From contig NC_014148.1 in assembly GCF_000092105.1 (NCBI RefSeq), positions 1,350,001 to 1,382,000 of the forward strand: DNA of 32,000 nt, given 5' to 3'. Source of the stretch: Planctopirus limnophila DSM 3776 (GTDB lineage: Bacteria; Planctomycetota; Planctomycetia; Planctomycetales; Planctomycetaceae). The stretch's first letter is position 1. Each line of letters begins with the position of its first letter. The position numbers and the translations under genes were made by a program. Positions 7,861-27,146 of this stretch are shown in pieces. The notes beneath the pieces are model-generated. The model saw only the letters and a program-made list of their open reading frames with translations, did no database searches and was not told where the DNA came from.

Positions 7861-8121
7861 ACATTCACTTTTTTCAATCGGTCACGGGAAGTATCCGAAA
7901 TTCGAATTCTGCCAAAAACGTGTCAATCGCCCTACTGGATGAGCAGTCCAGAATAACACACGACAATTCGACTTGGAATAAGCCGAGGGAAGCTGCAATT
8001 GTCCCGTTAAACGTCCAACGCAAGCAGGTTCACGTTGACTTTAGGGCATTTGGGGGAAGTGCGGTCGAGATGGTGGCCGGACCGCGCGGCAGAACCGTCA
8101 GAAGAACCTCGGGAAAGACTA

Positions 8122-8154
8122 GGCGGATCTGGGATTGAAATCACCAGATCCGCC
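8122..8154. repeat. Perfect 11-bp inverted repeat (hairpin) upstream of the SIR2-APAZ gene
   Basis: ggcggatctgg (8122-8132) is the exact reverse complement of ccagatccgcc (8144-8154). The 11-nt spacer can add a further 3 bp, gat with atc. It lies 262 bp from the SIR2-APAZ start codon. Confidence 0.85.
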
Positions 8155-8282
8155 CCCACGTCACTTCGACGCTTCGACTCGGTTATTCCTTGGCGAGGTT
8201 GCTTCCCAGCAGAGCCTGCCTCCGCTTCACCGAGTACAACTGAGCCTGCCACAGCCATTTTCTCTACTCAAGAAAACTGGAA

Positions 8283-8348
8283 TTCGCCAATAGTGGGCTC
8301 CACCGGTAAAAAGCCCAAGGAGGCTACGCCGCCGCTTAACTGTTGGCG
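8283..8348. repeat. 66-bp structured repeat, copy B (right flank of the Hachiman+SPARSA cassette)
   Basis: 57 of 66 identity to 304-369, in the same orientation and with the same terminal stem cgccaa/ttggcg. The internal helix becomes gggct/agccc, a compensatory change relative to copy A. Confidence 0.85.
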
Positions 8349-8553
8349 GAATCTCCCCCGTCAAATCAAGGGTTTATTCCGTCTGCAATTTATTCTTCTG
8401 CTTATGTCACGTTTTCCGAACGGTCCGCATAACGGAGATTAGAAGCCCGTTTTCGTTCTCGGTGAAACGATGGAGACGTCCTTTGACCGAGAGAAACGGT
8501 GCTGCGTGAAAGGTAAGGTTTGTCATTCCTCAGATACAGAAATGGGGCACAGC

Positions 8554-8871
8554 ATGGCGAATCAAAAGCCTGTTCACGAAATTCGACTCGGAAAGGTGAA
8601 GGCAGCAATTTAGAGAAATGAGACGGACGCGGGAACACGTTACAGCGTGAGCATCGCTCGGCTCTACAAGGTCGAAGGAGGTAACTGGGAAACCAGCACG
8701 TCCTTCGGTCGCGATGAACTGCCACTCGTCAGCAAAGTTGCAGACATGGTCCACACATGGATCTATCAGCAATCGGAACGAACTGAAGAGCCTAAGGAGC
8801 AGCCTCAAACGTTGCCCTCAAGCTCTGAACCAAAATCCGGACGACGACGAGAAAGGGCCGGTGCACGCTAA
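8554..8871 (+). pseudogene. Small conserved hypothetical gene interrupted by an in-frame TAG
   Basis: ATG 8554 gives MANQKPVHEIRLGKVKAAI, then TAG at 8611-8613. The same frame continues as RNETDAGTRYSVSIARLYKVEGGNWETSTSFGRDELPLVSKVADMVHTWIY. From unverified memory, homologues next to ardC on conjugative elements read AAIW at this point, which would imply TGG to TAG. Confidence 0.5.
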
Positions 8872-9084
8872 TTGCATCGACCGAACAGTGAGAGGTTCTT
8901 TTCTTCGGTTTCACGCACCACCGATCTCTCACCTTCGATTGCCGTTTGGCAATCTCCAAACGGGCAGAAGACCTATGCCCACCGTTTCCATTGGACGGCT
9001 TACGAGCCAGCCAGTGGAGACCGGTGGCGTGCATCCAAAGGTTTTCCATTGTTTTCCCTTCTGCGGCTTTTTCCAGCTTAACGC

Positions 9085-10104
9085 GTGGTCAAGGTCCAAC
9101 GCTCAGTAGAGCGTTTGCTTCTTCGCGGTTCCCGCGAAGAAGCAAACTTGACTGACCGCGTTGCCAAAAGCTGGGCCGCCGACGGGCCTCAATCAATCCG
9201 TTTCACGACTAGTCAGTCGGCTCGGCACCTTGGAGGCATTCATGAATCGAGAAGAAGCATTGAAAAAAGTGATGATGCGTTGAAGGAACTGGCTGAAGCA
9301 TTGAAGCATGGCAAGATCGACACGTTGCTCAAGTACCTCGATACGCTCAGTCGCTTCCATCGGTATTCCTTTGGGAATTGCATTCTGATTGGTGTGCAAC
9401 GGCCAGATGCCAGTATGGTGGCGGGTCTCCATCGCTGGAAGCAGTTGGGACGTTGGGTGAAGAAAGATGAGAAGGGGATTGCGATCCTCGCTCCTATGGT
9501 TTCTCGCAAAGACAAGGAGAGTGATTCGGCAGAAGTAGGGGAGGAACCGTCCGAAACACGAACCTCAACCTTATGTGGATTCCGCGTCGCGTATGTATTC
9601 GACGTTCAACAGACCGAGGGCAAGGAACTTCCAGAGTTCGCGCACCTTGGTGGAGATCCCGGTGACAAAATTGACCGCTTGGTCGATATCACCACAGAAA
9701 GAGGGATCGACGTCGAATTCGTGGATTCACTACCTGGCGGAGCCAATGGAGTTTCACTCGGAGGAATGGTGCAAGTTGTTTCAACGCTTCCGGCACCGCA
9801 GAAGTTCTATACGCTTGTTCACTATCTGGCACAGGAACTTTAGCATCGCGGTGATAGACGAAGCGAAACAACGAAGGTCATTCGCGAGACAGAAGCAGAA
9901 GCAGTCGCTTATGTGGTCTGTCGTTCCGTTTGGCTTGAATGTTCAACACGGGCGTCTGACTACATCCAGATCTGGAATGGGGACGACAAAGTTCTCGTGC
10001 AGTCGCTGGAACTCGTTCGTCATGTCGCAACCGAAATCATCGCAGAGCTTGAATCTGAAGTCGGCCATGAGACTGCGACAGAGATGGCTCATGCTGAATG
10101 CTGA
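9085..10104 (+). pseudogene. ardC: ArdC-like antirestriction protein (ssDNA-binding N-domain plus metalloprotease C-domain), disrupted
   Basis: The N-domain motif is HRYSFGNCILIGVQRPDASMVAGLHRWKQLGRWVKKDEKGIAILAP. An in-frame TAG sits at 9841-9843. The same frame resumes as HRGDRRSETTKVIRETEAEAVAYVV...SDYIQIW. The expected HExxH reads HYLAQ (9820-9834). A good GGAGG-N5-ATG start at 9242 is one frame off and meets the main frame at an A6 run (9263-9268). Confidence 0.75.
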
Positions 10105-10356
10105 TGCTTTTCTAACTCAACTCCGGAAACTTTCGATCTTGGGGAATAGTTTTGTGCTGCCAAATTGCTGCTAAGTAAGCTGCAATTGGCTGAGGTGAAT
10201 CGATTGATTCACAATTCGAGGTCCAAAATGGAATACACGCCACCTGGACCTCCACCTTTCAGCTTCGAATTGAACAAAGACATTTCGTGGTCAAGGGTAG
10301 CACAGCCCAAGCTGGTTCGGCGGGTGGAAACATGTTGTCGAGACGCTTCGTAAGGT

Positions 10357-11227
10357 GCTAGGCCGTATGGACATTCGATCTTGCAGGTGATGAGCTGGTT
10401 AAGCGAGTATAAGTCTACTCAAGGAAAAGGGACTATGCTCAAGCGATACGCACTTTCGGAAGAGCTTTGGAAGCGCATCGAACCACTCTGCCCCGGCAAA
10501 GCCTGTGATCCCGGTCGTACGGCGGCCGACAATCGACTCTTTGTCGAGTGAGTGATTTTCGTGCTCAAATCTGGGATTTCATGGGCAGATCTCCCCGAGC
10601 GATTTGGTTTACATAACTTGGTTTGGAGGCGGTATAACCGCTGGTGCCTGAGAGGAACATGGCAGAAGATTGCCCAGGCTCTGCAAGATCCAGAACTGGA
10701 AGAAGTTCAGATCGATTCGACGACGGCCAAAGCCCATCCCGTCGCCGCGACAGGGCGCCGTCAGGCCAAGGAAAAAAGTTGAGGCCGATGAACGACGCTG
10801 CCCGGGACGCAGTCGCGGTGGATTGACGACGAAAGTTCACGCCGCTGTGGATGGTCGAGGCCGCCTTCTCAAGTTGATACTGACTCCCGGCCATGCAGGC
10901 GATGCCCCTGTGGGAGAAAAGCTGCTGGAAGGTCTTTGTGCGAATCATGTCTTGGCAGACGCATCCTACGACAGCGACGCGAACCGGCTGCGTGTGAAGC
11001 GGATCTGGGCACAGGCGTGTATCAAACCGAAGGCAAACCGGAAGGCGAGAAAGCGGTGCATCAAGGAACGCTACCGGCATCGGAACGTGATCAAGAGGTT
11101 TTTCGGAGCCCTGAAACGCTTTCGACGTATCGGCACCCGTAATGATAAGAAAGCCGCGAACTTCGCGGGCTTCCTCTGACTTGTTGTCCGTTTGGCCAAG
11201 CCATTTCGACTTACCATAGGTCGCAGC
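10357..11227 (+). mobile_element. IS5-family insertion sequence (IS427/IS1031-like size), degenerate
   Basis: About 871 bp. Candidate imperfect terminal inverted repeats are 10357-10384 and the reverse complement of 11200-11227, matching at 18 of 28 positions. They enclose a two-frame DDE transposase. No clear target-site duplication was seen, so the boundaries are approximate. Confidence 0.55.
10435..11179 (+). pseudogene. IS5-family DDE transposase, two frames, with an in-frame TGA in the first
   Basis: The first frame reads MLKRYALSEELWKRIEPLCPGK...NRLFVE, then TGA at 10549-10551, then [19 protein letters not shown]...IDSTTAKAH. The second frame, offset +1 from about 10772, reads GRSRGGLTTKVHAAVD...LADASYDSD...YRHRNVIKRFFGALKRFRRIGTRNDK. 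These are typical IS5 motifs. The frame junction lies at GAAAAAAG (10771-10778). Confidence 0.8.
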
Positions 11228-11850
11228 GCCATGTTGGTCAGAAGTTAGGTGTTTGGGGTGACATCGTCGACGCGTAGTGTCGGGTCCCAATCTGGCTTCC
11301 GAAGCAATCGCAGTCAAACATTCTGATTGCCGTCAGAGACTTTCTATTCGAATTCCACAGGAGTTTAAGGCTCATTTCAGATCTGACGGCGAGCTGACAA
11401 CCACCTCCTGTTCCTGCCACTGTGGCACAGTTAAGTCTTTTTTTGAGCAAGCCAGGCTATTTTTGAGGATCACTGTCGTCATCCCGCTTCACTTTCGGCA
11501 CTGAAAGTCCGATACTCTGGGAGGTTCTGCCTGCACGGTCGCGCGCTGGAGAATTTCGGGTCATGGCACTAGCCAACAATCTTGGTGCATGGGAAATGGA
11601 AGCTGTGGTGAGTTTTTGCCAGCGACTCCATTTCCGGTTGACGCCAGGTCAGGGAGAATACCGGATCGTCCCAGTGGCTCGGTGTGGACTTTAAAGCGGA
11701 AGCACTCCATGAGCGAAGCCATGCGAGCGCCCTGAAGCGTGCAAAGCAGTTCTTGAGAATAGACGAATGGCCGATTGTCCGATGAAGGTGGCACCTCTCC
11801 TCGTGCAGGACGCGGCTGAAGGAGTGCTCGCGGAATTGATTGATCACTAA

Positions 11851-12855
11851 ATGATGGAGTTGGCCACGATGGCCACGGCACAACAACTCAAAGCCCTGTT
11901 GCAAAGCTATAGCGAGGCGGACAGTGAAATGTTCGTCTCAGTCGCGTTGCAGATTGCTGCGCATGAAGCGCGAACGGGTAAAGGTAAATTTGCGTTAGAA
12001 ATCAAGAAGCTCGTCGACGAAATTAAGGGAAAGCAGCGATCCTCCAGCCTGGGAGAATCGGTTCCGATCACTCGTCCGACCGGAGAATTGGCGACACTGC
12101 TTTCCGCGACGTATCCCCACACGAAGCTGGCGGAGATGGTACTGGCTCCGGAACAGCGAGAGTCGCTGGAGTTGGTCATCCGTGAATATTGTCAGCAGGG
12201 AAAACTACGAGAATATGGACTCTCTGCCCGCCGGAAACTGCTGTTGGTTGGTCCTCCGGGCGTCGGTAAGACGATGACTTCGTGGGCTCTGGCAGGAGAG
12301 TTGAAGCTACCGCACTTCACAGTGCAGCTACATTCGCTCATCACAAAGTACATGGGAGAGACCGCCGCCAAGCTCTTTGCGGTCTTTGAGGCGATGCGGC
12401 ATACGCGTGGGGTCTACCTGTTCGATGAATTCGATGCGATTGGCTCGATGCGAGCTGGTAGTAATGATGTGGGAGAAATCCGTCGCGTGTTGAACTCCTT
12501 CCTGCAATTTCTGGAGCAGGACGACTCGGACAGCCTGATTGTGGCTGCAACCAATCTGGAAGAGATCTTGGATGAAGCATTGTTCCGGCGGTTTGACGAT
12601 GTGATTAGGTATCAACTGCCGACCGAAATAGAACTCCGGGATTTGATCGCCAATCGCTTGGCAGCCTTCAAGATTGACAACAAAGAATTGCGAGAAATGG
12701 CAAGCCAAGCTCAAGGACTTAGCCATGCAGAGATTTGCCGTGCCTGTGATGAGGCGGCGAAAGTGGCTGTCCTGGATGATCGACGAAAAATTGCCAGAGA
12801 AGATGTTCAGCGTGCAATTCGCTTACGCCAGGAACGCAAACGCTCCGTGAGGTAG
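11851..12855 (+). CDS. ietA: Classical-clade AAA+ ATPase, IetA-like
   Basis: 334 aa. Walker A is GPPGVGKT, Walker B is VYLFDEFDA, sensor-1 is VAATN and the Arg-finger region is LFRRFD. It sits 18 nt upstream of an S8 protease gene. This pairing is the IetAS architecture described by Gao et al. 2020. Confidence 0.72.
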   Translation: MMELATMATAQQLKALLQSYSEADSEMFVSVALQIAAHEARTGKGKFALEIKKLVDEIKGKQRSSSLGESVPITRPTGELATLLSATYPHTKLAEMVLAPEQRESLELVIREYCQQGKLREYGLSARRKLLLVGPPGVGKTMTSWALAGELKLPHFTVQLHSLITKYMGETAAKLFAVFEAMRHTRGVYLFDEFDAIGSMRAGSNDVGEIRRVLNSFLQFLEQDDSDSLIVAATNLEEILDEALFRRFDDVIRYQLPTEIELRDLIANRLAAFKIDNKELREMASQAQGLSHAEICRACDEAAKVAVLDDRRKIAREDVQRAIRLRQERKRSVR

Positions 12856-12873
12856 GAGAGATATCAAAGGGCC

Positions 12874-15351
12874 ATGCCGGATTATCGACATTTTACGTTA
12901 ACAGGCACTCGCACTTCACGAGGCTATACGACTCCTCCTCCTGGTGGTGGCGATCGCAAAAGTCTTCCTTATCCCGACCGAGCCACTCATGGTGAGAAGC
13001 TGCTTCAGGATCTGGAGCGTGCCGAGCGTAACGCACAGGCACGCCAACAATCAGAACCGATTCGGGAAGGCCTGCAATTCATCCCAATGCGGTTCAGCGA
13101 GGGATCGGACTTTGACCTCAAGCTCCAGAGTTTGGCAGGCAACGAGAGCAGCGGCATTCGCATTCTCAGCGTCCGGGAGAAGGGAACGACTAAGGAATAT
13201 CTGGTTGCGGTTCCAGACGGCAAAGTCGCAGGACTGGGCAAAAAGTTTCGCAAGTACCGGGACGAGGATTCTGAGACAGGCCGTCCCAAAAACGAAGACT
13301 TTGCTGCCAGCGTGGCAAGCATCGAAGCGGGAGAGTTGGCCGATTACTGGACTGAACCAAAAGGCGCATTACCTGTCAGCGATCATTTGCTCTGGTGGGA
13401 GGTCTGGCTGAGTAGTTCTCCGGGTGATGAAGTGGAAGCCTGGTTTCGCCGCGTGGCTGGAGAACAAAAAATACTGGTCAGCTCACAGCAAGTTCGCTTT
13501 CCGGATCGCCTGGTGATTCTGGCGTATGCAACGATCACTCAATGGGAAGCTTTTCCTGGCCTCCTGCAATATCTCGCCGAGTTTCGACGGGCCAAACTGG
13601 TGGCGGGTGAGTTCACTCGTCTCAATCCCGCCAGTCAGGCAGAGTACATTCAGGATCTATTGTCACGTACTCAATTCGCTCCTAGTGATGCTGTGCGAGT
13701 TTGTCTGCTGGACACCGGAGTGGATCGCGGACACCCACTCCTGGAAGCCTCCCTGTCAGTCACAGATTTGCAGTCCTGGCGAGAGGAATGGGGGGCTAAT
13801 GACCATGCTGGTCATGGAACAGAATTAGCGGGAATATGCCTGTTCGGTTCCCTTGTGGGGCCGCTCTATGACGGTGAGCAAATCGAACTGAAACATCGTC
13901 TCGAATCGGTAAAAATCATTCCACCTTTTGGCCGAAACGAGCCTCCGGATTATGGACCAATTACGGTGGGCGCGATGGCACTGGCGGAAACCTCCTCTCC
14001 TCATTCTTCACGTGTATTCTGTTTGGCAGTGACCGTTGAAGGAGAGGACCATTGGCGTCCGACATTATGGTCAGCCGCCATAGACCAGGCTTGCGCTGGT
14101 GCGCTGGATGAACAGCAACGATTGGTGATTATTTCTGCTGGCAATCTTGGTGAAGAAGTCATTGGTAAGAACTACCCGGCAGAGAATCATGTATCGAGTG
14201 TGGAAGATCCAGCGCAGGCCTGGAATGCCTTAACGGTTGGCGCTTATACAAACATGGCTTGGATGGATGAAGTGGCTCTGGAGGGATACACGCCGATCGC
14301 CAAACCGGGGAGTCTTTCGCCCGCGAGTCGCACATCCCTCTGCTGGAACGAGAACGGGCCATACAAACCCGATGTCGTTTTCGAAGGGGGTAACTACGCT
14401 CGCAATGCTCAGTGTTTTATCACAAGTGTTGAAGACCTGGATCTACTGACGACTGCCTCCCTCACAAAGACGCAAGCTCTCCTCGGAACGACACGGAATA
14501 CGAGTGCTGCAACCGCTTTGGCGGCACGTATGGCTGCGATATTACAAGCAGAGTACCCCGCGTATTGGCCAGAATCGATCCGAGGTTTGATGGTCCACTC
14601 GGCGGAGTGGACACCGCAAATGCTGGAGGAATTTCCGTTTCGGGATCGTAGGCAACGACTGAAAGTCTATGGCATGGGGGTTCCGAACCTGACTCGGGCA
14701 CGTCGTTCGGCAGAAGGATTCGCCACGATGGTGATTCAGGATCACTTGCAGCCATACAAGTTGACGTCGGGTGACAATGCCACGCATGAGATGCATTTTC
14801 ATCACCTTCCTTTGCCCCGAAAAGTGCTGGAAGAGTTAGGAAGCACGCCCGTCCGAATGCGAGTAACCTTGTCTTACTTTATTGAACCCAACCCTCCCCG
14901 TCGCGGATATGTGGCGCGTTATCAGTATGCTTCGCACGGGTTGAGGTTCTCAGTACGTCGTCCCCAGGAGACACCAGAGCGTATGATCGCTCGTCTCTCG
15001 ACTACAGAATGGCCGATTGAGAATGGGAAAAAGAAACGACCATTTGAAACAATTTCGGATGATCGAAATTGGGATCTGGGACCTGAGGCAGTCAGTGTTC
15101 GCGGCTCGATTCACTCGGATGCCTGGGAGGGAACTGCGGCTCAACTGGCATTATCAAACTTAATCGGAGTCTATCCTGTCAGCGGTTGGTGGCGTTATCG
15201 CAAGGATCGCACCATCGTTGAAAAGTCAGCCCGTTATTCGTTGATTGTCAGTATCTCGACTTCTGACACCACAGTGGACCTCTATAACATCATTGCGAAT
15301 GAAATCAGCTCACGAATTTCTGCTGGTATCGCTACGGAGATTCCGACTTGA
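12874..15351 (+). CDS. ietS: S8 (subtilisin-like) serine peptidase, IetS-like
   Basis: 825 aa. The catalytic residues all look intact: Asp in LLDTGVD, His in HGTELAG, the oxyanion Asn in ISAGNLG and Ser in NTSAATALAA. It has a roughly 270-aa N-terminal region and a roughly 200-aa C-terminal region with no motif I recognise. Confidence 0.8.
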   Translation: MPDYRHFTLTGTRTSRGYTTPPPGGGDRKSLPYPDRATHGEKLLQDLERAERNAQARQQSEPIREGLQFIPMRFSEGSDFDLKLQSLAGNESSGIRILSVREKGTTKEYLVAVPDGKVAGLGKKFRKYRDEDSETGRPKNEDFAASVASIEAGELADYWTEPKGALPVSDHLLWWEVWLSSSPGDEVEAWFRRVAGEQKILVSSQQVRFPDRLVILAYATITQWEAFPGLLQYLAEFRRAKLVAGEFTRLNPASQAEYIQDLLSRTQFAPSDAVRVCLLDTGVDRGHPLLEASLSVTDLQSWREEWGANDHAGHGTELAGICLFGSLVGPLYDGEQIELKHRLESVKIIPPFGRNEPPDYGPITVGAMALAETSSPHSSRVFCLAVTVEGEDHWRPTLWSAAIDQACAGALDEQQRLVIISAGNLGEEVIGKNYPAENHVSSVEDPAQAWNALTVGAYTNMAWMDEVALEGYTPIAKPGSLSPASRTSLCWNENGPYKPDVVFEGGNYARNAQCFITSVEDLDLLTTASLTKTQALLGTTRNTSAATALAARMAAILQAEYPAYWPESIRGLMVHSAEWTPQMLEEFPFRDRRQRLKVYGMGVPNLTRARRSAEGFATMVIQDHLQPYKLTSGDNATHEMHFHHLPLPRKVLEELGSTPVRMRVTLSYFIEPNPPRRGYVARYQYASHGLRFSVRRPQETPERMIARLSTTEWPIENGKKKRPFETISDDRNWDLGPEAVSVRGSIHSDAWEGTAAQLALSNLIGVYPVSGWWRYRKDRTIVEKSARYSLIVSISTSDTTVDLYNIIANEISSRISAGIATEIPT

Positions 15352-15470
15352 AGGACGTGAGTTTTACGTGTTCTGATCGCGCCGCAAAGTCGTTCTTCTT
15401 TCGTTTCTAGTATTCTGTTGGTGGAAAACGGCGACTGGTAAACCGATCGGTCCAGTCACAGATATGATTA

Positions 15471-15758
15471 TTGATGGCCTCACTTTTTCCGTACAACATG
15501 GTGAAACACGTGAGGTTCCCGAGACGAGAATTACTGGGAGGAATCAATATTCACTCTTCTGATTTAGGTGACGCTCTCCTAAGCCGAGAAGAGATCGGCG
15601 ATGACGTATTGTTTGAAGTGCCGTTAAACTCGGGTGAGTCCATAGCAGCAGGGTCACTCTGCTCAATTATGATCATTATCACCTTTCGCCGCCTAAAGCA
15701 TACTCCGAGAGTGATTGGATTCGAGTTAAACCAAGAATACATTCGAAATATAGGGTGA
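15471..15758 (+). CDS. Small hypothetical ORF (95 codons); possibly a decayed methyltransferase fragment
   Basis: It ends 1 nt before the next ORF. The segment GDDVLFEVPLNSGESIAAGSL...RVIGFELNQEYI weakly resembles the C-terminal motif I region of beta-class DNA MTases (VLDPFxGSGTT...iGiEl..eY), but the glycines are not conserved. The call is weak. Confidence 0.25.
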   Translation: MMASLFPYNMVKHVRFPRRELLGGINIHSSDLGDALLSREEIGDDVLFEVPLNSGESIAAGSLCSIMIIITFRRLKHTPRVIGFELNQEYIRNIG

Positions 15759-15759
15759 C

Positions 15760-16668
15760 GTGCAAAATATGGATGAAGTCCTACTTCGCAGGCTTCTGGA
15801 TCGGCCGCATGCTCCATCACCAGGAGACTCGTCATTCTTATCATCATTGTCTGAGCACAATCGTGCCATTGAGGTGGCTGTAATCTATCACCATCGGATG
15901 GCATTCTATTACTGGCTTTGCTGGACAACAAATGACTGGAGCTGCTCACTCCGGTCGGATCAGCTTGCACCAGATTTAGTGACGGTGGACTGGCATGATG
16001 ACGTGGGTGGTGAGCCCGATTGCGTGTTCGACGAATTGCATTCTTTAATCGCACGTTTAGAGGTGGAAAACGTTGACGATCATGCCAGTCTAAGAGACGC
16101 TGTGCAGCGGCGACAAATGAGTGAGAACAACGTCATTGCTTATTCCATGCTGGGGCTGCGTTCGCTTAATGATGGTCACATTTTTCCAGCACAGTATCTT
16201 AATGCGATTGGCAACGTATATGTGCTCTACAAGCAACGAGAGAAGCACAGCTGTAGAATGACTGACCAGTATGGAAACCAGCATGAAATTCATTACGTCA
16301 GGACCGTGCGAGACCTGCTTAAGCATCTCAAGAAAGCAGAATCTCGACCGACTTACTTCGACCTCGATGTTGATTATTTCTTCCGTGAAGGCAGGGGAAA
16401 GGTCCGCGGTGCAGAGGTAATGATTGCTGAAGAGGAGATCCGCAGTCTTTTAGATCTAGATGGTGATTTCATGGCGCATCTAGGTGCTCGGCCAATGCGT
16501 GGAATGACTATTGCTCTGGAACCAACTTATTGTGGAGGGCTCATTGGATGTTTCAAAGCACTATCCGTTATCTGCGAGACTCTCTTTGAGGGCTCGTTGC
16601 TGGGGGACAAAGTTGACTGGAAGGATCCGCGAAAGTCGCACAAGAAACCGAAAACAAATCAGACGTGA
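15760..16668 (+). CDS. UPF0489-like protein with arginase/HDAC-fold binuclear metal-site signature
   Basis: 302 aa; the true start may be ATG 15769. Motifs are an HH pair (VIYHHRMAFYYW), D-x-H-x-D as DWHDD (15988-16002) and D-x-D-x-D as DLDVD (16360-16374). This pattern matches the ureohydrolase/deacetylase metal ligands and my recollection of the UPF0489 (C5orf22-like) family. Confidence 0.6.
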   Translation: MQNMDEVLLRRLLDRPHAPSPGDSSFLSSLSEHNRAIEVAVIYHHRMAFYYWLCWTTNDWSCSLRSDQLAPDLVTVDWHDDVGGEPDCVFDELHSLIARLEVENVDDHASLRDAVQRRQMSENNVIAYSMLGLRSLNDGHIFPAQYLNAIGNVYVLYKQREKHSCRMTDQYGNQHEIHYVRTVRDLLKHLKKAESRPTYFDLDVDYFFREGRGKVRGAEVMIAEEEIRSLLDLDGDFMAHLGARPMRGMTIALEPTYCGGLIGCFKALSVICETLFEGSLLGDKVDWKDPRKSHKKPKTNQT

Positions 16669-16789
16669 TCATGGTTTCCAGGCGTGTTCGGTAAAGTGTG
16701 GAGAATAGGAAGATAACCATGAAAAATGCATTCGCCGAATTTTGTCAATCATCTATGGTCTATGGACGTTGATAATAGTGTGGTTTTCG

Positions 16790-16812
16790 AGGCGACGAGC
16801 AATAAGTCGCCT
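16790..16812. terminator. Hairpin between convergent genes (possible factor-independent or bidirectional stop, no U-tract)
   Basis: aggcgac (16790-16796) pairs with gtcgcct (16806-16812) around a 9-nt loop. It lies between the UPF0489-like stop (16668) and the sngC stop (16825). There is no T-run on either strand. Confidence 0.25.
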
Positions 16813-16824
16813 GCGAAAGTTCCG

Positions 16825-19002
16825 CTAATTGCTCACGAAGGTTCTGAGGGACCTGAGTGCGCCAGGTAAGTCGAGGCAATCTGCGGCAAACGATTCCTGA
16901 AGCAAACTCTCGGGGATAAAGTTATCCCATTTGCGTCGTACAAGTTGATGGCTCAGTTGAGCCAATTCCAATCCGAATGGCGTTTGGCGAAGAATTCGCT
17001 CCAGGCTGGATCGATTCTCCTCGCAAAATTCAATCGAAAAGGAAAGGCCCCGCGGTCGCAGTTCTGCTGAGACGCCCGCCCATTCAAACAACAGTTGGAG
17101 CGTTCGCATCACGGCTGTTCCCGTCCAGGGAAACCATTCAACTACGTCATTGGTAAGCGGAACAACATCTGATGTGGCAAGCCCAGAATCCGTTGCAACT
17201 TGACGAGCTTCATTCAGCAGTTTCACGGCAAACGAATCCAGATAAACAGGGACAGCGGAACTTTGCAGCACCTCTCGCATTTTTACTCGAATCTCATGAG
17301 CGATCTCGCCACCACTACTAAAAAACATTGGGGGTTTACGACCACGGGCCGACTGTACTTGAACCTCTTCCCTCTCGTGATCGACATTCACCACCTGCCA
17401 GCGACGGCCTGCAAGAATCAAATGTTCTCCCAGAGGTGGTACATTTTCCCTAGTGAGTCGCCCCAGGACACGACTTCCCGAAACCACTCGATATTCTAAA
17501 GGTGAAATGAAAGCCGCATAGAATTCATAATGACGAACAAATCGTTCGCCGAACAACCCGAGTATCAACAGGCCATCTGGTGTTTGTTCAATCAAATCAT
17601 GACTTGCGAGTCCCCTTAGAAGTGTCACGAATTGCTGGGAGTTGATGAAACTGAAGACGCCATCGCAAACAAGTTGGTCGAAGAGTGACGTCGCTAAAAT
17701 ACCACCCCTTTCAGCGATAACACTGAGAATCTGTTGCGTGAGCGTACTGAGATCAAATGGTCGTGTGCGAGGAGATTCCACCCATCGATCAAGCATCAGT
17801 TCTGTCAACGCAATTCCCTGGAGCAGGTCTGGGTAGAGACGATCTGAAAGTTCGCTATGTGCTCCAGGATGCTTCTCAATGATGAACATGCGAAGCTGAT
17901 GAGTTTCTCCATCACGACGTCCACTCCGGCCCAACCGCTGCAGCATCGAACTTACAGACCAGCAGGGGCCAATTTGACCCACTCCGCGAACATTTCCAAT
18001 ATCGATCCCTAGTTCAAGTGTTGAAGAACAAATTGCAGTATAAGGGCGTTGGCCCTGCATCAGCCGCTCTGTCTCTTCGCGAATGTCTTTGGAGATTGAT
18101 CCATGATGGATTAGAAACTCTTCTCCCGTCGAATTTTTTCTCCCAAGTTCGTTCAGACGATCAGTCGTCAATTCAATGACGGATTTGCTGTTCGCGAAAA
18201 TCAAATTCTTTGAGCCGCGGTAATTGTCAAAGAGTTCCTGAAAGACATCCTCCGGTGAGACATACTCAGGATCTGATGGATCTGAGTCTTTATCCAATAT
18301 CTGCGAATACGCATGCAGACGAAACTGAATCCGTTTCTCGTCACCTTCATCACAGATAATCTCGACAGAGTCCTGGTCGCCTGGTCGGATCCACTCGGCA
18401 GCAGCTTTGAGATCACCGATCGTTGCAGATAGCGCAAGGATTCGAGGCCGTGTTATTGCGTGGTGGTCAAGCCGGTAAAGTTGACTCCGGAGTTGCGTGC
18501 CGCGTTCATTTCCCAACAACGCATGGAGTTCGTCAATAACGACAAAGGAGAGGGAATGAAAGATTCGAGATAAGGCTGTACTGCGGTTAATTAACAGCGA
18601 TTCAAGTGATTCCGGCGTAATTAATAAGACGCCTCCAGGGCAAGTGACAAGTTGTTTCTTTTTGTCGGCCGAAACATCTCCATGCCAACGGTGGACTGGG
18701 ATTTCTGCATACTCACAAAGTTCTTCAAGACGACGAAACTGATCATTGATGAGTGCTTTGAGTGGCCCAATGTAGAGAGCTCTGACAGATCCGACAGGAG
18801 CAGTACAGACATCTGAAAGGATTGGCAGAAACGCAGCCTCTGTTTTGCCAGCCGCAGTCCGTGCTGCAAGAATCAAATCTGATTTTCTCTGCATCACAGC
18901 AGTAATAGCATGTTCCTGCAATGGGCGTAGCTTATTCCAGCCCATTCTCCAGAGGCTACGCCGAATTGGTTCGGCGAGAAGTTCATCGGGATGGTGCTTC
19001 AT
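16825..19002 (-). CDS. sngC: Shango SngC, Lhr-like DEAD/DEAH helicase
   Basis: 725 aa. Walker A is AARTAAGKTEAA, motif II is VVIDELHAL and motif VI is QRLGRSGRR. It has a long C-terminal extension. A 4-nt overlap couples it to the upstream ATPase gene. Confidence 0.78.
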   Translation of the reverse strand: MKHHPDELLAEPIRRSLWRMGWNKLRPLQEHAITAVMQRKSDLILAARTAAGKTEAAFLPILSDVCTAPVGSVRALYIGPLKALINDQFRRLEELCEYAEIPVHRWHGDVSADKKKQLVTCPGGVLLITPESLESLLINRSTALSRIFHSLSFVVIDELHALLGNERGTQLRSQLYRLDHHAITRPRILALSATIGDLKAAAEWIRPGDQDSVEIICDEGDEKRIQFRLHAYSQILDKDSDPSDPEYVSPEDVFQELFDNYRGSKNLIFANSKSVIELTTDRLNELGRKNSTGEEFLIHHGSISKDIREETERLMQGQRPYTAICSSTLELGIDIGNVRGVGQIGPCWSVSSMLQRLGRSGRRDGETHQLRMFIIEKHPGAHSELSDRLYPDLLQGIALTELMLDRWVESPRTRPFDLSTLTQQILSVIAERGGILATSLFDQLVCDGVFSFINSQQFVTLLRGLASHDLIEQTPDGLLILGLFGERFVRHYEFYAAFISPLEYRVVSGSRVLGRLTRENVPPLGEHLILAGRRWQVVNVDHEREEVQVQSARGRKPPMFFSSGGEIAHEIRVKMREVLQSSAVPVYLDSFAVKLLNEARQVATDSGLATSDVVPLTNDVVEWFPWTGTAVMRTLQLLFEWAGVSAELRPRGLSFSIEFCEENRSSLERILRQTPFGLELAQLSHQLVRRKWDNFIPESLLQESFAADCLDLPGALRSLRTFVSN

Positions 19003-20339
19003 AATCGAAACGTCGTTAGGTCGTCGGAGTTTTTTGGCAGATTTTCAGAATTTTCTTCCCTTGCGGTATCAAGGTTCATCTCGTCCGTAGTGGGGACAAA
19101 AGATTCAGCCTGTTTTATCGAGAGCAATTGCTCCCAAGATGCTGTGGGATTCTGTTGAAGAACCTGCATTAGGCCCACAAAATCCTTAACAGTATCACGC
19201 GGCGTTTGGAAATAGGACGATCCCATGCGTTGCTGGCAGACTTCCAAGTATCTCACAATACCTTCATCGGGAAGTAGTCGCTTCGCAAGGTCGCCACCGT
19301 CAAACACATTTCGAATATTGTCGAGCAGCACATAACAATCTTCGGCAGTGAGGCTTTCTAAATGGACGACAGGCGCATTGAGATCCCTTAATCCTTCCGA
19401 AGCAAAGCGATTGGCAGCAAGTCGTGTGGCCAATGCTTCATAGCTGAAAATTCCTCTGCGACGGTCTTCGAGACACTCGGGTGTTCCTGCGAAAACAAAA
19501 CCAATTCCACTTGCGCGCCCCTGCAGCGAATCATTCACAATACGAAGAATCGCTTCGTAATTGTTGTTACGCGCCACTGTGTTGTTTAAACGATGTGATA
19601 GAACCACTAACTCATCAACGTTGACGAGCAGCCCTGCAAATCCTGCCATTCGGACAAATGCAGCAAGGAGTTTCAAATAATCATAGAATGAATCATCCTC
19701 AATGATGGAGCGGACTCCAAGGTCCTGCCGGGCTTCTGTTTTTGTGGCGTATTCTCCACGCAACCAGCGCAATGCAGCTTGCTGTTGTACTTCGTTATGA
19801 GTCAAAAAGCCCTCAAAATATTTGACAATCACATTGGCAAAGTCGTAGCCACTGACGAGTTCCTGCAGCGGTTGAAGTCGCTTGAGAAGTTCTCTGCGGA
19901 CGCCCTCATCGTCGCCCCCATCTTCGCGCACCTCATGATCCACATCACCAACCCAGCGTTGGACGAGATTTGGCAAGGCTCCGCCGTCGGGCTTGGATCT
20001 CGTCGACAGATTCTTGATTAGCTCTGCATAAAGAGATCTTGCTTGGCCATTTGATCCGTGCAGTCGTCGCTCTGTCGTGATGTCTGCTTGGGCCACCACA
20101 AACTTCCGTTGGAGAGCAACGGTTCGCAGTAGGTTCAGAAAGAATGTCTTTCCACTGCCAAATCGCCCAATAATGAAGCGGCAAGCCGCACCACCTTGTC
20201 CAACCTGTTCAAGATCCCGCACGAGAGCTTGTACCTCGTCGTTGCGGCCTACCTGAATATGGTGCAAACCAATACCGGGAACCACTCCGGCAGCCAAGGA
20301 TTGAATGATCGCAGTCCGTTCTCGGGCAGGGATGGTCAT
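18999..20339 (-). CDS. sngB: Shango SngB, BrxD/DUF2791-like ATPase
   Basis: 446 aa. Walker A is GRFGSGKTFFL and Walker B is LLVNVDELV. It has 4-nt overlaps with both neighbouring genes. Confidence 0.78.
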   Translation of the reverse strand: MTIPARERTAIIQSLAAGVVPGIGLHHIQVGRNDEVQALVRDLEQVGQGGAACRFIIGRFGSGKTFFLNLLRTVALQRKFVVAQADITTERRLHGSNGQARSLYAELIKNLSTRSKPDGGALPNLVQRWVGDVDHEVREDGGDDEGVRRELLKRLQPLQELVSGYDFANVIVKYFEGFLTHNEVQQQAALRWLRGEYATKTEARQDLGVRSIIEDDSFYDYLKLLAAFVRMAGFAGLLVNVDELVVLSHRLNNTVARNNNYEAILRIVNDSLQGRASGIGFVFAGTPECLEDRRRGIFSYEALATRLAANRFASEGLRDLNAPVVHLESLTAEDCYVLLDNIRNVFDGGDLAKRLLPDEGIVRYLEVCQQRMGSSYFQTPRDTVKDFVGLMQVLQQNPTASWEQLLSIKQAESFVPTTDEMNLDTAREENSENLPKNSDDLTTFRL

Positions 20340-22543
20340 GGAGTCTCTCTAACTTGTGGAAGTAGTTCACGCTGCACGACGATGAACTCGCCATCTTCAA
20401 TCAGCAACGCGTCAGGCAGTCGGTCGAAAGCCCACTCATTGATTTGCTCAATCGCCGCTCCCAGCATGAGACCGCGACTCCTAGCCTCTGTTTCCAATGA
20501 CTTTAGCGGCCATTGTTCTTCTGCGATAAGGAACCTTGCAAAAGGAACAAGCCGAGAGGAAAGTCCTTCAAAGCGTGAGTCCGCCAGAGTTTCTTGAGAA
20601 GTCGCGACTGGAACGATTAAAGCGGAAACGGATTCTGTCGAATGCGTGGGAAGTTCGACGTCAGCATTATCGACTTCAAAATCCTCCCGTAGGGCATCGC
20701 GGAGGAACTGTGTTACTTTAGCTGTTTCGGTCATAATTGCATTAATACGATTGAGATCAAGCTGGAAGGTCTCCGAAGCTTGCGCGGCGGTTGATGCGAC
20801 AGCCTGAGCTGGTATTGAAATCGACTGGAGGAGCTGCTTGAGGTCTGATGTTTCCAATCCCAGCGCTCGATAGGCCTTTCCAAGGGCTTTGACTTCTGCG
20901 GGATCAATCACCTCATCGGCAGCAGCAATACCGACAAGGAATTCACCCACTTGCTTCCGTTGGGGGACAGTCAGGTTTTTTTGTAGAGTACGAGCAGCAG
21001 AGAATTCTGTCGGGGGATACTTCGTTAGCAAATACCGCAGATATTCCAGTCGCAAGGAATCTTGAGCAGAGAGTTGAAATTGAGTTTCCAGGTGGGTGCC
21101 GAGTCGACCGAGTTCGATCGGGTCGATCTGACCATCAGCGGCTGCAATCGCGACACCTAACTCCATTACGACTGCTGCCGCATGGTACGACGCAATGTCT
21201 TCGCTCAACTCCTCACTAGCCGGAAAGACATTGACCGGCTGATCCCAATCATAAGCTTTTCCTGTGAGTCGAGGGTCTGGTTCGAGTGCCAGTCGCATGT
21301 GAGTCGCTGTCAGTGCCAATTCCATTGATTGACTTTTTGTCAGCTTCTTCCTTTCCGAGATTCCTTCGAGCTTGGCGAGCTCTCCTATCGGGACGACCGT
21401 CCAGCCATCTTCCGTGACATGACGATTCATGACCGCATGCCAGATTTTGAAGTGAGGATGTTCCCATCCACGCAGATGTTCGGGCAATGACTCATACATC
21501 TCGGCCGTCATCGCACTACCATTAGACTTTCGATGAGCCCGATCGTAGGCTTTGAGCTCTTCGTTGGTCTGTACACAGACATCGATCAATGGTTGAAGTT
21601 GTGAGTTGAGCCCTAGAACATTGGGAATTCGCTCCTCCGCCAAGGGACCGCCAGAATCTTGCAAACGCCCAAGCGTGGCACTGGCGGGATAGTATTCAAA
21701 TTGCTTGTCACGCCTTCCAGTCCGCAAACGAAAGCCATCCGGATACTTTTGACGTAGGCCACGTTCGAACGAATCGCGGTGGAGTTCCGCATGTCGCTGT
21801 GAGATGACGCTGCGAGGCGTGCGAACATCGTTCTCGACGAGGCGATGAACCAGGGTAGTGGGGAGTACTGCCTGCATTTTTGCAAAGCATGCTAGACAGG
21901 TATTCAAAGTTTGTTCGCTCCAAGACCCTGTTTCGAGCGCTTGCTCCATCACCTTTCCGGTAACCGATGTTGATTTTAAACTGAGCCAGATGGTCGCCCA
22001 CAGCAACGATGTGCCGTATTGTCGAAATGATCGCGACGAAGAATAGATTTTCAGCAGCCGAATGAGTTCCTCTGCGATCGACGTATGGTCGGCTCCGTCG
22101 ATCAATACCCGTCGTTCGAGGCCATAAAAATAGATAAAAACGTAACCCAAGGGGATTGCCGGATCAGACCTGCCACCAATCAACCAGTCGAGATAACGCG
22201 ATCTCTGGGCGGGTGAGGAACCTCGATAACTCGGCCAATAAGGAAGGTCTTCAGCCTCTGTCCCTGATGGTGCTACTGGCAAGCCGGTTTCGATGAGAGA
22301 TGCATCCGGTGCGGCGTCCGCTATTCCCGGAAACACATACACGAGTGGGCTGACAACTTGACCACGATCAAACAGTAGTTTCGTTTTTGAATCGTAGAAC
22401 TTTGCTTGTGGTTGAGGTTTGGGATTCCAGGTTCGTTTAGCGAAATCCCAGACGTTTTCTCTGGAACTCCCACTTGACCTTTTTTGCTCCTGCTTAGCCT
22501 GCGCCCCCGTCACCCGCCTCCAAAGTTCGACGAACGGTTCCAT
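20336..22543 (-). CDS. sngA: Shango SngA, TerB-N / TerB domain protein
   Basis: 735 aa. The TerB-N-like block is YWPSYRGSSPAQRSRYLDWLIGGR. Two TerB-like acidic motifs are AAADGQIDPIELGRL and AAADEVIDPAEVKAL. It is the first gene of a three-gene operon in the order TerB, ATPase, helicase. Confidence 0.78.
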   Translation of the reverse strand: MEPFVELWRRVTGAQAKQEQKRSSGSSRENVWDFAKRTWNPKPQPQAKFYDSKTKLLFDRGQVVSPLVYVFPGIADAAPDASLIETGLPVAPSGTEAEDLPYWPSYRGSSPAQRSRYLDWLIGGRSDPAIPLGYVFIYFYGLERRVLIDGADHTSIAEELIRLLKIYSSSRSFRQYGTSLLWATIWLSLKSTSVTGKVMEQALETGSWSEQTLNTCLACFAKMQAVLPTTLVHRLVENDVRTPRSVISQRHAELHRDSFERGLRQKYPDGFRLRTGRRDKQFEYYPASATLGRLQDSGGPLAEERIPNVLGLNSQLQPLIDVCVQTNEELKAYDRAHRKSNGSAMTAEMYESLPEHLRGWEHPHFKIWHAVMNRHVTEDGWTVVPIGELAKLEGISERKKLTKSQSMELALTATHMRLALEPDPRLTGKAYDWDQPVNVFPASEELSEDIASYHAAAVVMELGVAIAAADGQIDPIELGRLGTHLETQFQLSAQDSLRLEYLRYLLTKYPPTEFSAARTLQKNLTVPQRKQVGEFLVGIAAADEVIDPAEVKALGKAYRALGLETSDLKQLLQSISIPAQAVASTAAQASETFQLDLNRINAIMTETAKVTQFLRDALREDFEVDNADVELPTHSTESVSALIVPVATSQETLADSRFEGLSSRLVPFARFLIAEEQWPLKSLETEARSRGLMLGAAIEQINEWAFDRLPDALLIEDGEFIVVQRELLPQVRETP

Positions 22544-23112: not shown

Positions 23113-26100
23113 TTAGTCACTCTCCAAACCATGATCTGAACTTTGCTGAATAATGTCTTCCAATTCTTCTCGGCCACTGAGTGTCCTGATGGCTGGCGGC
23201 GTCTTGAGAAGTTGTCCACATCGGGCAAGAGTTTGATTCAGGAGTGTAGCAGATGAATTCGCGTTGTGCGTGGAGTAGATGCCGAGTACAGAGCGTGCTC
23301 TCGTCATGGCGACGTAGAGACTGGATGCCAGCACGTTATCGTCTGAGTCAATAAAATTATCGGCACATGGAATGAGCACGACTTCAGCTTCGTAGCCTTT
23401 GAATGAATTTGCGGTCGTCACCAACAATGTCTTACGTTTCCGCTCGAACTTCTGGCTTTTTTGCAGGGAGAGTTCGACATTGAACTGCTCCAGTCGCGGG
23501 GCGACATCGGACAGCAGCCGTTCCCAAATCCAGTTCCCATTGATAATCAGACAGATATCATTTGGTGGCACTTTCTCGTCAATCAAAAGCTTCACCAAAT
23601 CGTTTTGGAGAACTTCCAGTTCGTGATCTCTGGTGGCGTGCTGGCGAACATAGGGTCGGGGTCCGTCAATTTGGTTGTATTCCACTCGCAACCACTCTTC
23701 ACGATCTCGCAATTCTTTGGTCAAAAGTCCGAGTGACTGGAGTTCTTTGTGATCCTGCAAATCGGCAGTTGGCGCTAATCGCTGCAAAACATTGACAGCG
23801 AACTCGGTAATCGGACGGGTTGAGCGAAAGCTCTCTTTCATCACGGTCGATCGGCCACGGAGATCGAGGCCAAACTCGGACCATTTTGGTGTTTTCCGAC
23901 CATATAAGTTCTGGGCATTGTCGAAGAAAATGTGTGCCGACCGACTGTTGTGGTCTTCAGGTCGAGTTTGTTCCACGAGGGAGAGGAGAAGTCTCAGAGT
24001 GTGGGGGCCCATGTCCTGGGCTTCATCCAGAAACAAGGCCCGGCATGAATGTCGGATTGTTGTTTCTGACTGCTGATTCAAAAAGTCCTCCGAGGCCTTA
24101 TCGTAGTTGAATTTGTATTGCTCCATCGAAAGCCCGACGCTCGGCAGGAGCTGCGCAAGCAGATCGCGCACATGAATCAGTTCCACTTGGTCCCAAGGGA
24201 ACTCCAGTAGATTCCGTTGATTCTTCCAGGCGGCCTCAATGGAACTGCTGAGCAAACTATGCAGTGTTCGATTGGCGTAAACGGCCCAGATTTTTGCTTG
24301 GGGATCACCCTGCAAACGACTGGCTGTCTGAGCCAGCCAATTGGAAAGGACCACGGTCTTTCCGCTTCCCGCCACACCGCGTACCAGACGTGGTTTCCCA
24401 TCCAACTCCAGTTGACTCAGTCGCTGCTGTTCCTGGGACAAAATGGGCTTCATCTTGCGGCGCAAGGCAAATTGCCCACCCAACGTGTCGTCCCCCTCGC
24501 AAGGTTCATCGGCATCAGGAGGTGTGAGCTGACTTGCGGACTGCCACTGAACTCCCCCTCTTTTCTTAACCAGAACTTGAGGGGTGAGCAATTGCCCTAG
24601 AGGACTGAGATAGGGTTCTTCCATTTCACTACGACTGGCGATCACAATCACGGCTTCTCGTGCACGACTGATCGCCACATTCACCAAGCGTTTCCACTCG
24701 TCATGGGGCCATTGATGACTCCCTGCGTTCACCGTGTCAAAAATCACAACATCAGCTTCTGATCCCTGCTGACGATGCACCGTTGATGCTTCCCAGCTTT
24801 CGAGCCTGTTTTCAGCAAACCATTGACCAAACATTTGAGCCTGGGCGACATAGGGAGAAATGAAAAGCCCATGGCAAGTTCTCATTTCCGATGCTTGCAG
24901 GATCTTCTCCAAGACGGCCAGAGATCCCTTTCGAATCCAACTCCGATTTCCTGGCCCACGCTCGGCACGAATGGAGGCCAGGTTTTTGTTTTCTTCATCA
25001 ATCACGTACCAAATGGCCCGTGGCTGCTGGCTAAGACATGGAGGCAATGGACAAGGTCGCGAGTTGACTTCTGGAGCCGTGGTCAGAATGGAACCGTACT
25101 GATAGGCCGAGACGACCTGACAGATCTCAGGACGCATTCGCCGTTGTTCTGTTAGCACATGGACAGCAGGCGAGACGTTGGTCATGTGATGAAGATGGCT
25201 GACACCACTACTGGCTAGCCAAGCCTGTTGAACCGTCGTCAACACGCGCCGCACGCGACTGATGGGCGCCAGCTGTTTGGAATCACCGACCAACACAACT
25301 CGTCGAGCTGCCAAAAGAGAAAGTGCCGCTGTCGCTGCCCTGGAGATGAGACCTGCTTCATCAATCACAATCGTCGTGAAGGGGGCCTCGTTACGCTCCA
25401 GCAACGAACGTACTGTCTCCTGGTGGAGAAACTGGAGGGCCTTAAACGACGTTGTGATCACAACCCGGAAGTCGCGATGGGTAAAGATGACTCGCCCATG
25501 GTCGCCCACCGAGGATCGGAGTTCTTGAATTTTCTTTCGAAGGAAGGCCTTCTCTTCCCAGGAGTCAACCAGAGGCAGTTGACGACTCAACAATTCGATC
25601 TCACGCAACTTCTCGGTTTCTGTGCCAACGAGCATTGAGTCAAGACCATGGCTCTGAAATCGATCGACGGCCGCCCCGCGTCCAATCCGAACAAGTCCTA
25701 GTTCTTCAACATGGGAGTCTGCGAGTTCGACCGTAGCAGTTCCGATCGATAAAGCCACTGCATCTGTTGCCCGATTGGTCGTGGAGACAACCAGAATTCG
25801 TTCCGTAGGGTCCGCCAGTGCGGCAGCCACTTGACGGCCGATGGTGTAGGTTTTGCCTGTTCCGGGTGGACCCCAGAGCATACTCCAACTGTATTGCCAC
25901 CATGGGGAGAGTTCTTTGAGTCCTCCAGCGGCGGTATGCCGGACTTGGGGGGATTGACTCCCCGTGGCAGCGCTCAATCGTTGACTGAGAACTTCAGAAA
26001 GTGACCGGAACCGCTCTTCATGGTAAATGTCATCAAGGGTACCGAGAAAATCAAAGGGCCTGACCAGAAATGTCCCCACAGTGGGAGGATGATCCGAACT

Positions 26101-27090: not shown

Positions 27091-27092
27091 TG

Positions 27093-27129: not shown

Positions 27130-27146
27130 GCCAGCGGGGTATTCGC

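Follow-up and report, generated by a model that had tools for sequence, protein, structure and literature searches.

What a solitary gene with an arginase-like metal site does in the middle of a defence island is the question raised by a 32,000-nucleotide stretch of the Planctopirus limnophila DSM 3776 genome (NCBI RefSeq assembly GCF_000092105.1, contig NC_014148.1, positions 1,350,001 to 1,382,000 of the forward strand), referred to here as the window. The gene, Plim_1075, is located on the forward strand at 15760-16668. PADLOC identifies IetA/IetS on one side of it and the Shango genes SngC/B/A on the other, in agreement with the original prediction, which was made from the DNA letters alone and had placed the gene between these two systems in defence surroundings. 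The reading favoured here, although held tentatively, is that Plim_1075 is a stand-alone binuclear-Mn(II) ureohydrolase from a sister subfamily of the peptide arginases, that its substrate is arginine within a peptide or protein, and that the gene is carried as cargo related to genetic conflict.

The open reading frame (ORF) at 15760-16668 (+) encodes 302 amino acids when counted from its GTG codon, and its product is identical to the P. limnophila hypothetical protein Plim_1075. Residue numbering in this text counts from the GTG at 15760, which makes the likely ATG start M4. The true start is probably this in-frame ATG at 15769, three codons downstream of the GTG, because homologues begin with MDE.LL at M4 and DNA similarity starts there; the coding sequence (CDS) of the arginase-fold enzyme then spans 15769..16668 (+) and encodes 299 amino acids. 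Nucleotide similarity between Plim_1075 and related loci extends exactly from 15769 to 16638, with none outside the CDS, and begins at 15769 in the loci L001, L002 and L081 (homologue loci are numbered with the prefix L). A comparison with the L001 homologue (72% identical) yields a pN of 0.17 and a pS of 0.71. Judged by these sequence comparisons, Plim_1075 is a real gene with purifying selection acting on it. The locally AT-richer patch that had been noticed by eye is real but mild, with a GC content of 48.7% in the CDS and 45.3% in the spacer upstream of it versus 51.5% in the whole window, 53.2% in IetAS and 50.3% in Shango.

As a single sequence, Plim_1075 has no match in Pfam, NCBIfam or PADLOC even at E<=10, and a phmmer search of the PDB returns only one chance-level match (E 0.45). 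The family profile matches exactly one PDB structure, that of the peptide arginase OspR (8BRP), at E 1.6e-9. An AlphaFold2 model of Plim_1075 generated from the homologue alignment has a pLDDT of 93.7 and a pTM of 0.91. When this model is searched against the PDB with Foldseek, OspR chains occupy ranks 1-3 (E 2e-5, probability 1.00, TM-scores 0.43-0.47) and E. coli agmatinase 7LOX occupies rank 4 (E 1e-3, probability 1.00), with modest TM-scores to OspR and agmatinase of 0.38-0.47 overall. Besides these two proteins nothing passes E 0.001, and no histone deacetylase (HDAC) is among the matches. As modelled, Plim_1075 has an arginase-type three-layer alpha-beta-alpha fold, which is shared with arginase and agmatinase. 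The arginase-like fold put forward in the original prediction for checking is therefore what profile and structure searches return. Of the arginase/HDAC-type site proposed there, the arginase half is upheld by the OspR profile match, the Foldseek result and the predicted ligand set, and the HDAC or deacylase half falls away with the lack of any HDAC match.

The translation carries the motifs HH (H44-H45), DWHDD (77-81) and DLDVD (201-205), as had been read from the ORF at the outset, and their key columns are conserved in 51-52 of the 52 homologues aligned (30-73% identity to Plim_1075, mean column identity 34%): H45 in 51, and D77, H79, D81, D201, D203 and D205 in all 52. The OspR paper gives the Mn ligands of that enzyme as His12, Asp39, His41, Asp43, Asp165 and Asp167. 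With residue mapping corrected for the +1 offset of the PDB chain, the hidden Markov model (HMM) alignment maps these six ligands onto H45, D77, H79, D81, D203 and D205. In the window, H45 and R46 are encoded at 15892..15897 (+) as part of the motif (H/E/Q)-H-R-F-A-F, where H45 corresponds to OspR His12, an MnA ligand. The DxHxD motif DWHDD (15988..16002, +) supplies D77, H79 and D81 as counterparts of Asp39, His41 and Asp43, and the DxDxD motif DLDVD (16360..16374, +) supplies D203 and D205 as counterparts of the metal ligands Asp165 and Asp167. The six residues make up a predicted binuclear-metal ligand set of the ureohydrolase type. The ligand pair D201 and D203 named earlier has to be shifted, because in the OspR alignment D201 is not a predicted ligand, though invariant, and D205 is.

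A resemblance to UPF0489 (PF12640) had been suggested from the N-terminal layout, together with the remark that this family has no assigned function. UPF0489 can no longer be called functionless, because its bacterial members are peptide arginases that convert peptidyl arginine to ornithine and urea in the pathways of peptides that are made on ribosomes and modified after translation (RiPPs); all characterized bacterial PF12640 enzymes are RiPP maturases (PMC10028609, PMC12703449). These peptide arginases, the characterized relatives of Plim_1075, do not accept free arginine. Kinship with UPF0489 is upheld: 14 of the 52 family members match PF12640 at E<0.01, and an hhalign comparison of the Plim_1075 family with 24 OspR-like PF12640 proteins gives 97.9% and E 5.9e-13 over 170 columns (residues 36-241). 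Membership in PF12640 itself is not, since Plim_1075 has no PF12640 match at E<=10. The closest relative tested, P0004, scores 16.1 bits against a gathering cut-off of 27 bits. Four of the 10 relatives tested score 28-30.7 bits, in the N-terminal half of the model only, and the matches of distant family members cover model positions 1-85 of 167. Plasmid homologues are labelled ‘UPF0489 family protein’ by the Prokaryotic Genome Annotation Pipeline (PGAP). A search seeded with OspR residues 8-176 retrieves 28 proteins, all annotated as PF12640, and these have zero overlap with the 101 matches of Plim_1075. Because of such differences in motifs, scores and alignments, Plim_1075 is treated as a member of the ureohydrolase superfamily outside PF12640 as delimited, and we file its family, from its predicted relationships, as a sister subfamily, hitherto undescribed, to the peptide arginases of UPF0489/PF12640, for which OspR is the prototype.

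The comparison with OspR, from the landornamide pathway of Kamptonema sp. PCC 6506, and its relatives FlmR, OhkR and PbsE shows which features are retained. All six Mn ligands align with Plim_1075; DxHxD, DxDxDYF and an H-x-x-A-F helix are common to both, as are a size of ~290-300 amino acids and a single domain. The first motif is EEH(N/H)EAF in OspR-like proteins and HHRMAF in Plim_1075 (xHRFAF in its family), which keeps His, Ala and Phe but loses the Glu-Glu pair and has Arg in place of N/H; this R46 is invariant and peculiar to the Plim_1075 subfamily. Position 44 is variable among the 52 homologues (E 25, H 13, Q 8, L 4, D 2). In the third motif, LDIDLDYFSC of OspR-like proteins compares with FDLDVDYFF of Plim_1075, where DxDxDYF is kept and ‘SC’ is lost. 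Relative to OspR, Plim_1075 has an N-terminal extension of ~30 residues with a conserved PPG, and the dimerization and substrate-cleft domain of OspR (Ser170-Ser234) is matched by a segment of only ~45 residues (D205-T250). The genetic settings also differ, since OspR belongs to a RiPP cluster whereas the Plim_1075 family stands alone within defence islands and mobile elements, with neither a RiPP cluster nor a precursor.

Two further motifs are specific to the subfamily. The nearly invariant loop N137-D138-G139-H140 (16168..16179, +), recognized from the homologue and OspR alignments and given a putative function, is present only in the Plim_1075 family and has no equivalent in OspR-like proteins; OspR has a 2-residue gap there, adjoining the position of its Ile73. 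The conserved C-terminal motif T250-I-A-L-E254-P-T-Y-C-G-G260 (16507..16539, +), TIALEPxYCGG in the family, takes the place of ICRSRxSGYTP in OspR-like proteins, and E254 within it is conserved in 51 of 52 homologues. Canonical arginases and agmatinases carry (D/E)-x-x-E-x-x-P at the place of the ALEP motif, and E254 is a candidate equivalent of arginase Glu277. According to the OspR authors, Glu277 is replaced in OspR by Ser264, and Glu11 takes over its function. The glutamate pattern of the Plim_1075 family looks reversed by comparison, with the Glu11 position unconserved and the C-terminal Glu conserved. Assigning H140 as the equivalent of arginase His141 was also considered, through an alignment of Plim_1075 ‘HIFPAQYL’ to human arginase ‘HGQPVSFLL’. 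This assignment conflicts with the published structural replacement of His141 by OspR Ile73, and it is kept as a lead only.

Arginase and agmatinase (PF00491) share the alpha-beta-alpha fold and the H, DxHxD and DxD ligand pattern with Plim_1075, and the conserved C-terminal Glu of Plim_1075 may match Glu277. However, there is no sequence-level match of Plim_1075 to PF00491 or to any PDB arginase, PF00491 is unmatched by all 52 family members, the arginase motif contexts GGDHS, DAHxD and SxDxDxxDP differ from its own, and a metabolic gene neighbourhood is lacking. The eukaryotic founding member of UPF0489, human C5orf22, belongs to the same superfamily via PF12640, and the OspR authors hypothesize a peptide-arginase function for it.

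For the analysis of genetic context, 80 genome loci were fetched with 10-kb flanks, ORFs were called crudely and the resulting 1,377 neighbour proteins were clustered all-against-all. Neighbour counts refer to 75 dereplicated loci, the immediate neighbours comprise 99 proteins, and Iet genes were searched by tblastn in 90 homologue loci. No neighbour family is present in more than 13 of the 80 loci. The IetS of the window is found in 0 of the 90 loci and an IetA-like gene in 1 (L066), 7 kb away and on the opposite strand. Because Iet is nearly absent and no family exceeds 13 loci, Plim_1075 is not regarded as part of Iet and lacks a fixed partner. Its description as an orphan is supported, and the small ORF upstream of it is likewise unconserved; the idea that it might be a third component of Iet or co-occur with ietAS is contradicted by these counts and by a 417-bp gap to IetS. 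Neither arginine, polyamine and urea-metabolism genes (urease, transporters) nor RiPP genes (lanthionine synthetase, YcaO, epimerase, leader-peptidase, transporter) are recurrent among the neighbours.

Defence and mobile-element genes are the ones that reappear. Type I restriction-modification (RM) genes (HsdM/S/R, often with a YgjP-like peptidase) are present in 10 of the 75 dereplicated loci, or ~13%, versus ~1-2% of random genes with type I RM within five genes, the latter figure being a rough guide. Tyrosine integrases occur in 12 of these loci, KfrA-like proteins in 7, PDC-M04 in 4 and Wadjet in 3. Among the 99 immediate neighbours, PADLOC detects REase_I, MTase_I/II, HamA/HamB, JetA/JetD, PDC-S28, PDC-M16A, PDC-M24B and E1-E2, once or twice each, and tblastn finds pAgo near the homologue in L054 and HamB near that in L035. 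Annotated contexts include a homologue near Wadjet, HNH and a serine recombinase, another near SIR2_2, RES, Abi_C and a relaxase, and one with an integrase and an excisionase directly upstream. One plasmid copy follows a Lit-family gene beside a recombinase, and another has a UvrD helicase on one side and an RM-like operon on the other. A further homologue is preceded by CBASS, type I RM and YgjP genes and followed by a type IV coupling protein (T4CP), a relaxase and Wadjet. In L089, the homologue lies a few kb from the ParB_N, ArdC-N/MPTase and orphan N6_N4 methylase genes of a TrwC-type integrative and conjugative element (ICE). The homologue in L098 is embedded in a DISARM-like co-directional operon (3791-16855) that consists of SNF2, a sigma-70-like gene, the homologue, N6_N4 methylase, RhuM, ResIII, an unannotated 439-aa protein and PLD; its stop overlaps the methylase start by 4 bp, indicating translational coupling. 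The expectation of defence-island settings elsewhere is thereby supported in a qualitative sense, with type I RM, Wadjet, DISARM-like, CBASS, Hachiman, pAgo and Lit genes near homologues.

In the crude ORF calls, the upstream gene is co-directional in 66 of 72 cases with a median gap of 56 bp, figures that over-long ORF starts inflate. Of 12 contexts with proper annotation, 9 have a co-directional upstream gene, and the spacing varies between a 10-bp overlap and a gap of 1,308 bp. A homologue often comes last in a co-directional series of genes, behind RM or other defence operons. In this the family resembles single-gene residents of defence islands such as the YgjP-like peptidase after type I RM, Lit and Abi, which have the same solitary, mobile and variable-neighbour behaviour. 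An arginase-fold enzyme is not known from any defence system: PADLOC-DB v2 has no model for the protein, and the literature searched describes none.

An exhaustive profile search of 1.84 billion cluster representatives returns 590 at E<=1e-3 and 113 at E<=1e-30. The 150 representatives listed of these 590 are all short proteins or fragments of <=316 amino acids, with no larger fusion proteins among them. The hosts belong to Planctomycetota, Bacteroidota, Pseudomonadota, Campylobacterota, Desulfobacterota, Firmicutes, Cloacimonetes and Victivallales and include one archaeal metagenome-assembled genome, a patchy distribution that is typical of horizontal transfer. Four copies of the family turned up on plasmids. 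In viruses, a tblastn search of 50,697 phage records gives no match, a structural search of BFVD gives no fold match, and relatives are present on only 7 of 2.9 million IMG/VR contigs; a phage-borne family was considered and rejected on these results. The seven predicted viral contigs (L091-L097) carry relatives at 30-40% identity.

In the proposed reaction, a metal-bridged hydroxide held by H45, D77, H79, D81, D203 and D205 would attack the guanidino carbon, with two Mn2+ ions bound (the metal being inferred), and urea would be released from the guanidino group. By analogy with the characterized enzymes, it would most likely act not on free arginine but on the side chain of an arginine within a peptide or protein, which would become ornithine (-42.02 Da). 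This substrate is favoured because the characterized relatives refuse free arginine and because no metabolic genes are found alongside. The gene would move horizontally as solitary cargo of defence islands, plasmids and integrative elements, and the target would be irreversibly de-guanidinated by a defence effector or accessory or, less likely, by a counter-defence factor. We infer the role in phage or mobile-element conflict from association only, because of this solitary carriage. That some copies are embedded in RM and DISARM-like operons, and that the family is nearly absent from phages, leans to a defence or accessory role, and adjacency to integrases and to the ArdC/ParB regions of ICEs keeps counter-defence alive. 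The more specific proposal that the family is a single-gene immune effector, or a portable accessory able to join many defence operons, which irreversibly turns key arginines of phage proteins, or of host proteins in abortive infection, into ornithine, is rather unlikely.

The alternatives differ from this reading in substrate, in beneficiary or in partner. That the enzyme is a ureohydrolase of small molecules instead (free arginine, agmatine, a guanidino acid or some other metabolite with a guanidino or amidino group), whether for ordinary accessory metabolism on mobile elements or as a metabolite-depleting effector, is unlikely but deserves serious consideration. Agmatinase is the sole structural match other than OspR, a Glu is kept in the strand-end motif ‘ALEP’ where OspR-like proteins have CRSR, the new, nearly invariant NDGH loop places a His near the proton-shuttle position of arginase, and the segment matching the OspR dimerization and peptide-cleft domain (S170-S234) is much shorter, at ~45 residues between D205 and T250. 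The nearest relatives by both sequence and fold are nevertheless peptide arginases that refuse free arginine, PF00491 is unmatched in every one of the 52 members, and the surroundings are mostly defence and mobile-element genes in which those of arginine, polyamine and urea metabolism do not recur. The same arginine-to-ornithine chemistry could also serve the other side of the conflict, with the enzyme inactivating a host defence protein as an establishment factor of ICEs or plasmids, in the manner of anti-restriction. Integrases, excisionases, relaxases and recombinases frequently adjoin homologues, four copies are on plasmids, the L089 homologue is near ParB_N, ArdC-N/MPTase and an orphan N6_N4 methylase, and the window holds an ArdC-N ORF of its own (9085-9843). 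This counter-defence role is considered doubtful, given that the gene is rare in viruses (none in the 50,697 phage records, no BFVD match, 7 of 2.9 million IMG/VR contigs) and that copies co-directional within or after host defence operons, such as type I RM-YgjP and the DISARM-like operon with its 4-bp overlap, fit a defence or accessory function better.

Explanations that supply a dedicated partner or a different chemistry fare worse. All characterized bacterial PF12640 enzymes being RiPP maturases (PMC10028609, PMC12703449), Plim_1075 might act on a nearby unrecognized precursor such as the product of the 95-codon ORF directly upstream, and two of the 99 immediate neighbour proteins are radical-SAM proteins. 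A classical maturase of this kind is very unlikely: no counterpart of the small ORF was found in 84 related loci, which resemble one another at the DNA level only within the CDS, RiPP maturation genes are absent from the window and not recurrent among neighbours, and the OspR-like set and the Plim_1075 family do not overlap in searches. About as improbable, if not slightly more so, is a third IetAS component encoded on the same strand immediately downstream. Co-directionality with IetA/IetS would suit it, as would the tendency of homologues to follow a co-directional gene (66/72 in the crude ORF calls); yet a 417-bp spacer of 45% GC separates the gene from IetS, the upstream partner varies by locus, and in the 90 loci IetS is never found and the one IetA-like gene is 7 kb off on the opposite strand. 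HDACs share the arginase/deacetylase fold with D, H and D ligands, which is the basis for considering an HDAC-type or acetylpolyamine-type deacetylase or deacylase. Such an activity is highly improbable, because no HDAC is among the significant Foldseek (E<=0.001), PDB sequence or profile, or Pfam matches, and the full six-ligand set of H, DxHxD and DxD is the signature of binuclear ureohydrolases.

Several observations weigh against a peptide- or protein-directed arginase with a role in conflict. On the enzymatic side, the Foldseek TM-scores to OspR are low (0.43-0.47), and Plim_1075 lacks a PF12640 match at E<=10. Beyond about residue 241, neither sequence nor profile alignments to OspR continue, and the divergent C-terminal part includes the place of the OspR dimerization and substrate-cleft domain. 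OspR Glu11 is unconserved in the family, given the variable position 44, and the canonical-arginase-like E254 and the new NDGH motif stand in place of OspR features; such subfamily-specific changes might reflect another guanidino substrate, possibly a small molecule. On the side of conflict, PADLOC-DB v2 contains 0 families that match Plim_1075 at E<=10, and the literature search found no paper in which defence is tied to UPF0489 or arginase-like genes. The association with defence is qualitative, drawn from neighbour lists without a total fraction or a genome-wide background control, and some homologues have weak or housekeeping contexts (e.g. L081, L090 and L099).

The published literature searched covers the enzyme class but contains no account of the Plim_1075 subfamily or of its RiPP-free life in defence islands. 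The conversion of arginine to ornithine in polypeptides is a very recent discovery, known only from a handful of RiPP maturases and never seen in immunity. Here, a separate sister subfamily with an intact predicted ligand set comprises ~590 sequence clusters in many phyla and has no RiPP partners. Should its substrates be proteins, the chemistry of peptide arginases would be extended to protein targets and a new enzymatic logic introduced into conflicts between phages and bacteria or plasmids and hosts; if its substrate is a small guanidino compound, the subfamily would represent a new ureohydrolase specificity tied to conflict systems. The family could also inform the function of human C5orf22. 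Under either substrate reading, Plim_1075 is a compact single gene and readily testable.

Two lineage-specific arrangements were observed among the homologue loci. In eight Flavobacterium loci (L033, L037, L038, L041, L043, L048, L050 and L051), a conserved 93-aa ORF is located directly upstream of the homologue (~9680-9960 in L038). It begins with MSRILGLDLGTNSIGWAIID, like the N-terminal RuvC-I motif of Cas9, continues with a short hydrophobic tail and is downstream of PDC-M04A/B genes in most of the eight loci. In seven Rhodocyclaceae/Burkholderiales loci (L013, L015, L016, L019, L020, L022 and L023), the homologue always comes after a 358-aa KfrA_N coiled-coil DNA-binding protein, and several of these loci also have a CusA/CzcA-type efflux pump and His-rich membrane proteins nearby, a setting that looks like a metal-resistance genomic island or ICE.

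The window as a whole is a dense defence island. The spacer between the IetS stop and the likely Plim_1075 start (15352..15768) is 417 bp long with 45% GC; sequence scans of it give no Rfam match and no promoter or terminator signals above the shuffled background. The 95-codon ORF within the spacer (15471..15758, +) has neither a PADLOC or NCBIfam match nor any homologue by tblastn in the 84 related loci, and is probably not a gene. Lanthionine synthetase, YcaO, epimerase, leader-peptidase and transporter genes are all absent from the window. A megablast search of positions 11000-20000 against E. coli genomes gives no match.

Upstream of Plim_1075, PADLOC identifies Hachiman on the reverse strand (445-4354, with HamB at 445-3558 and HamA at 3533-4354) and IetA/IetS on the forward strand (11851-15351). 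A short pAgo with its SIR2-APAZ partner is encoded at 4706-7860 (-) by the ORFs 4706-6127 and 6124-7860. The ORF at 9085-9843 (+) matches the ArdC-N domain at E 2.3e-9 and is overlapped by a 199-aa ORF in another frame (9575-10174, +). It may be a frameshifted ArdC-like gene and, as such, a hint that the island originates from a conjugative element.

Downstream, the right-hand end of the island carries a gene for a DUF2167 protein (29403-30545, +; E 4e-73), beside which three ORFs (27027-29370, 30738-31733) have no Pfam or PADLOC match. A 1136-aa double-helicase protein is encoded at 23113-26523 (-), with an MkoA-like region at residues 215-632 and a NERD/UvrD-like region at 695-1090. The Shango genes SngC/B/A, assigned by PADLOC, occupy 16825-22543 (-) and are convergent with Plim_1075. 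SngA (20336-22543, -) is 735 amino acids long with TerB_N, TerB and TerB_C domains; the PADLOC model of 528 positions matches residues 66-733, and the copy in the window is markedly longer than that model.

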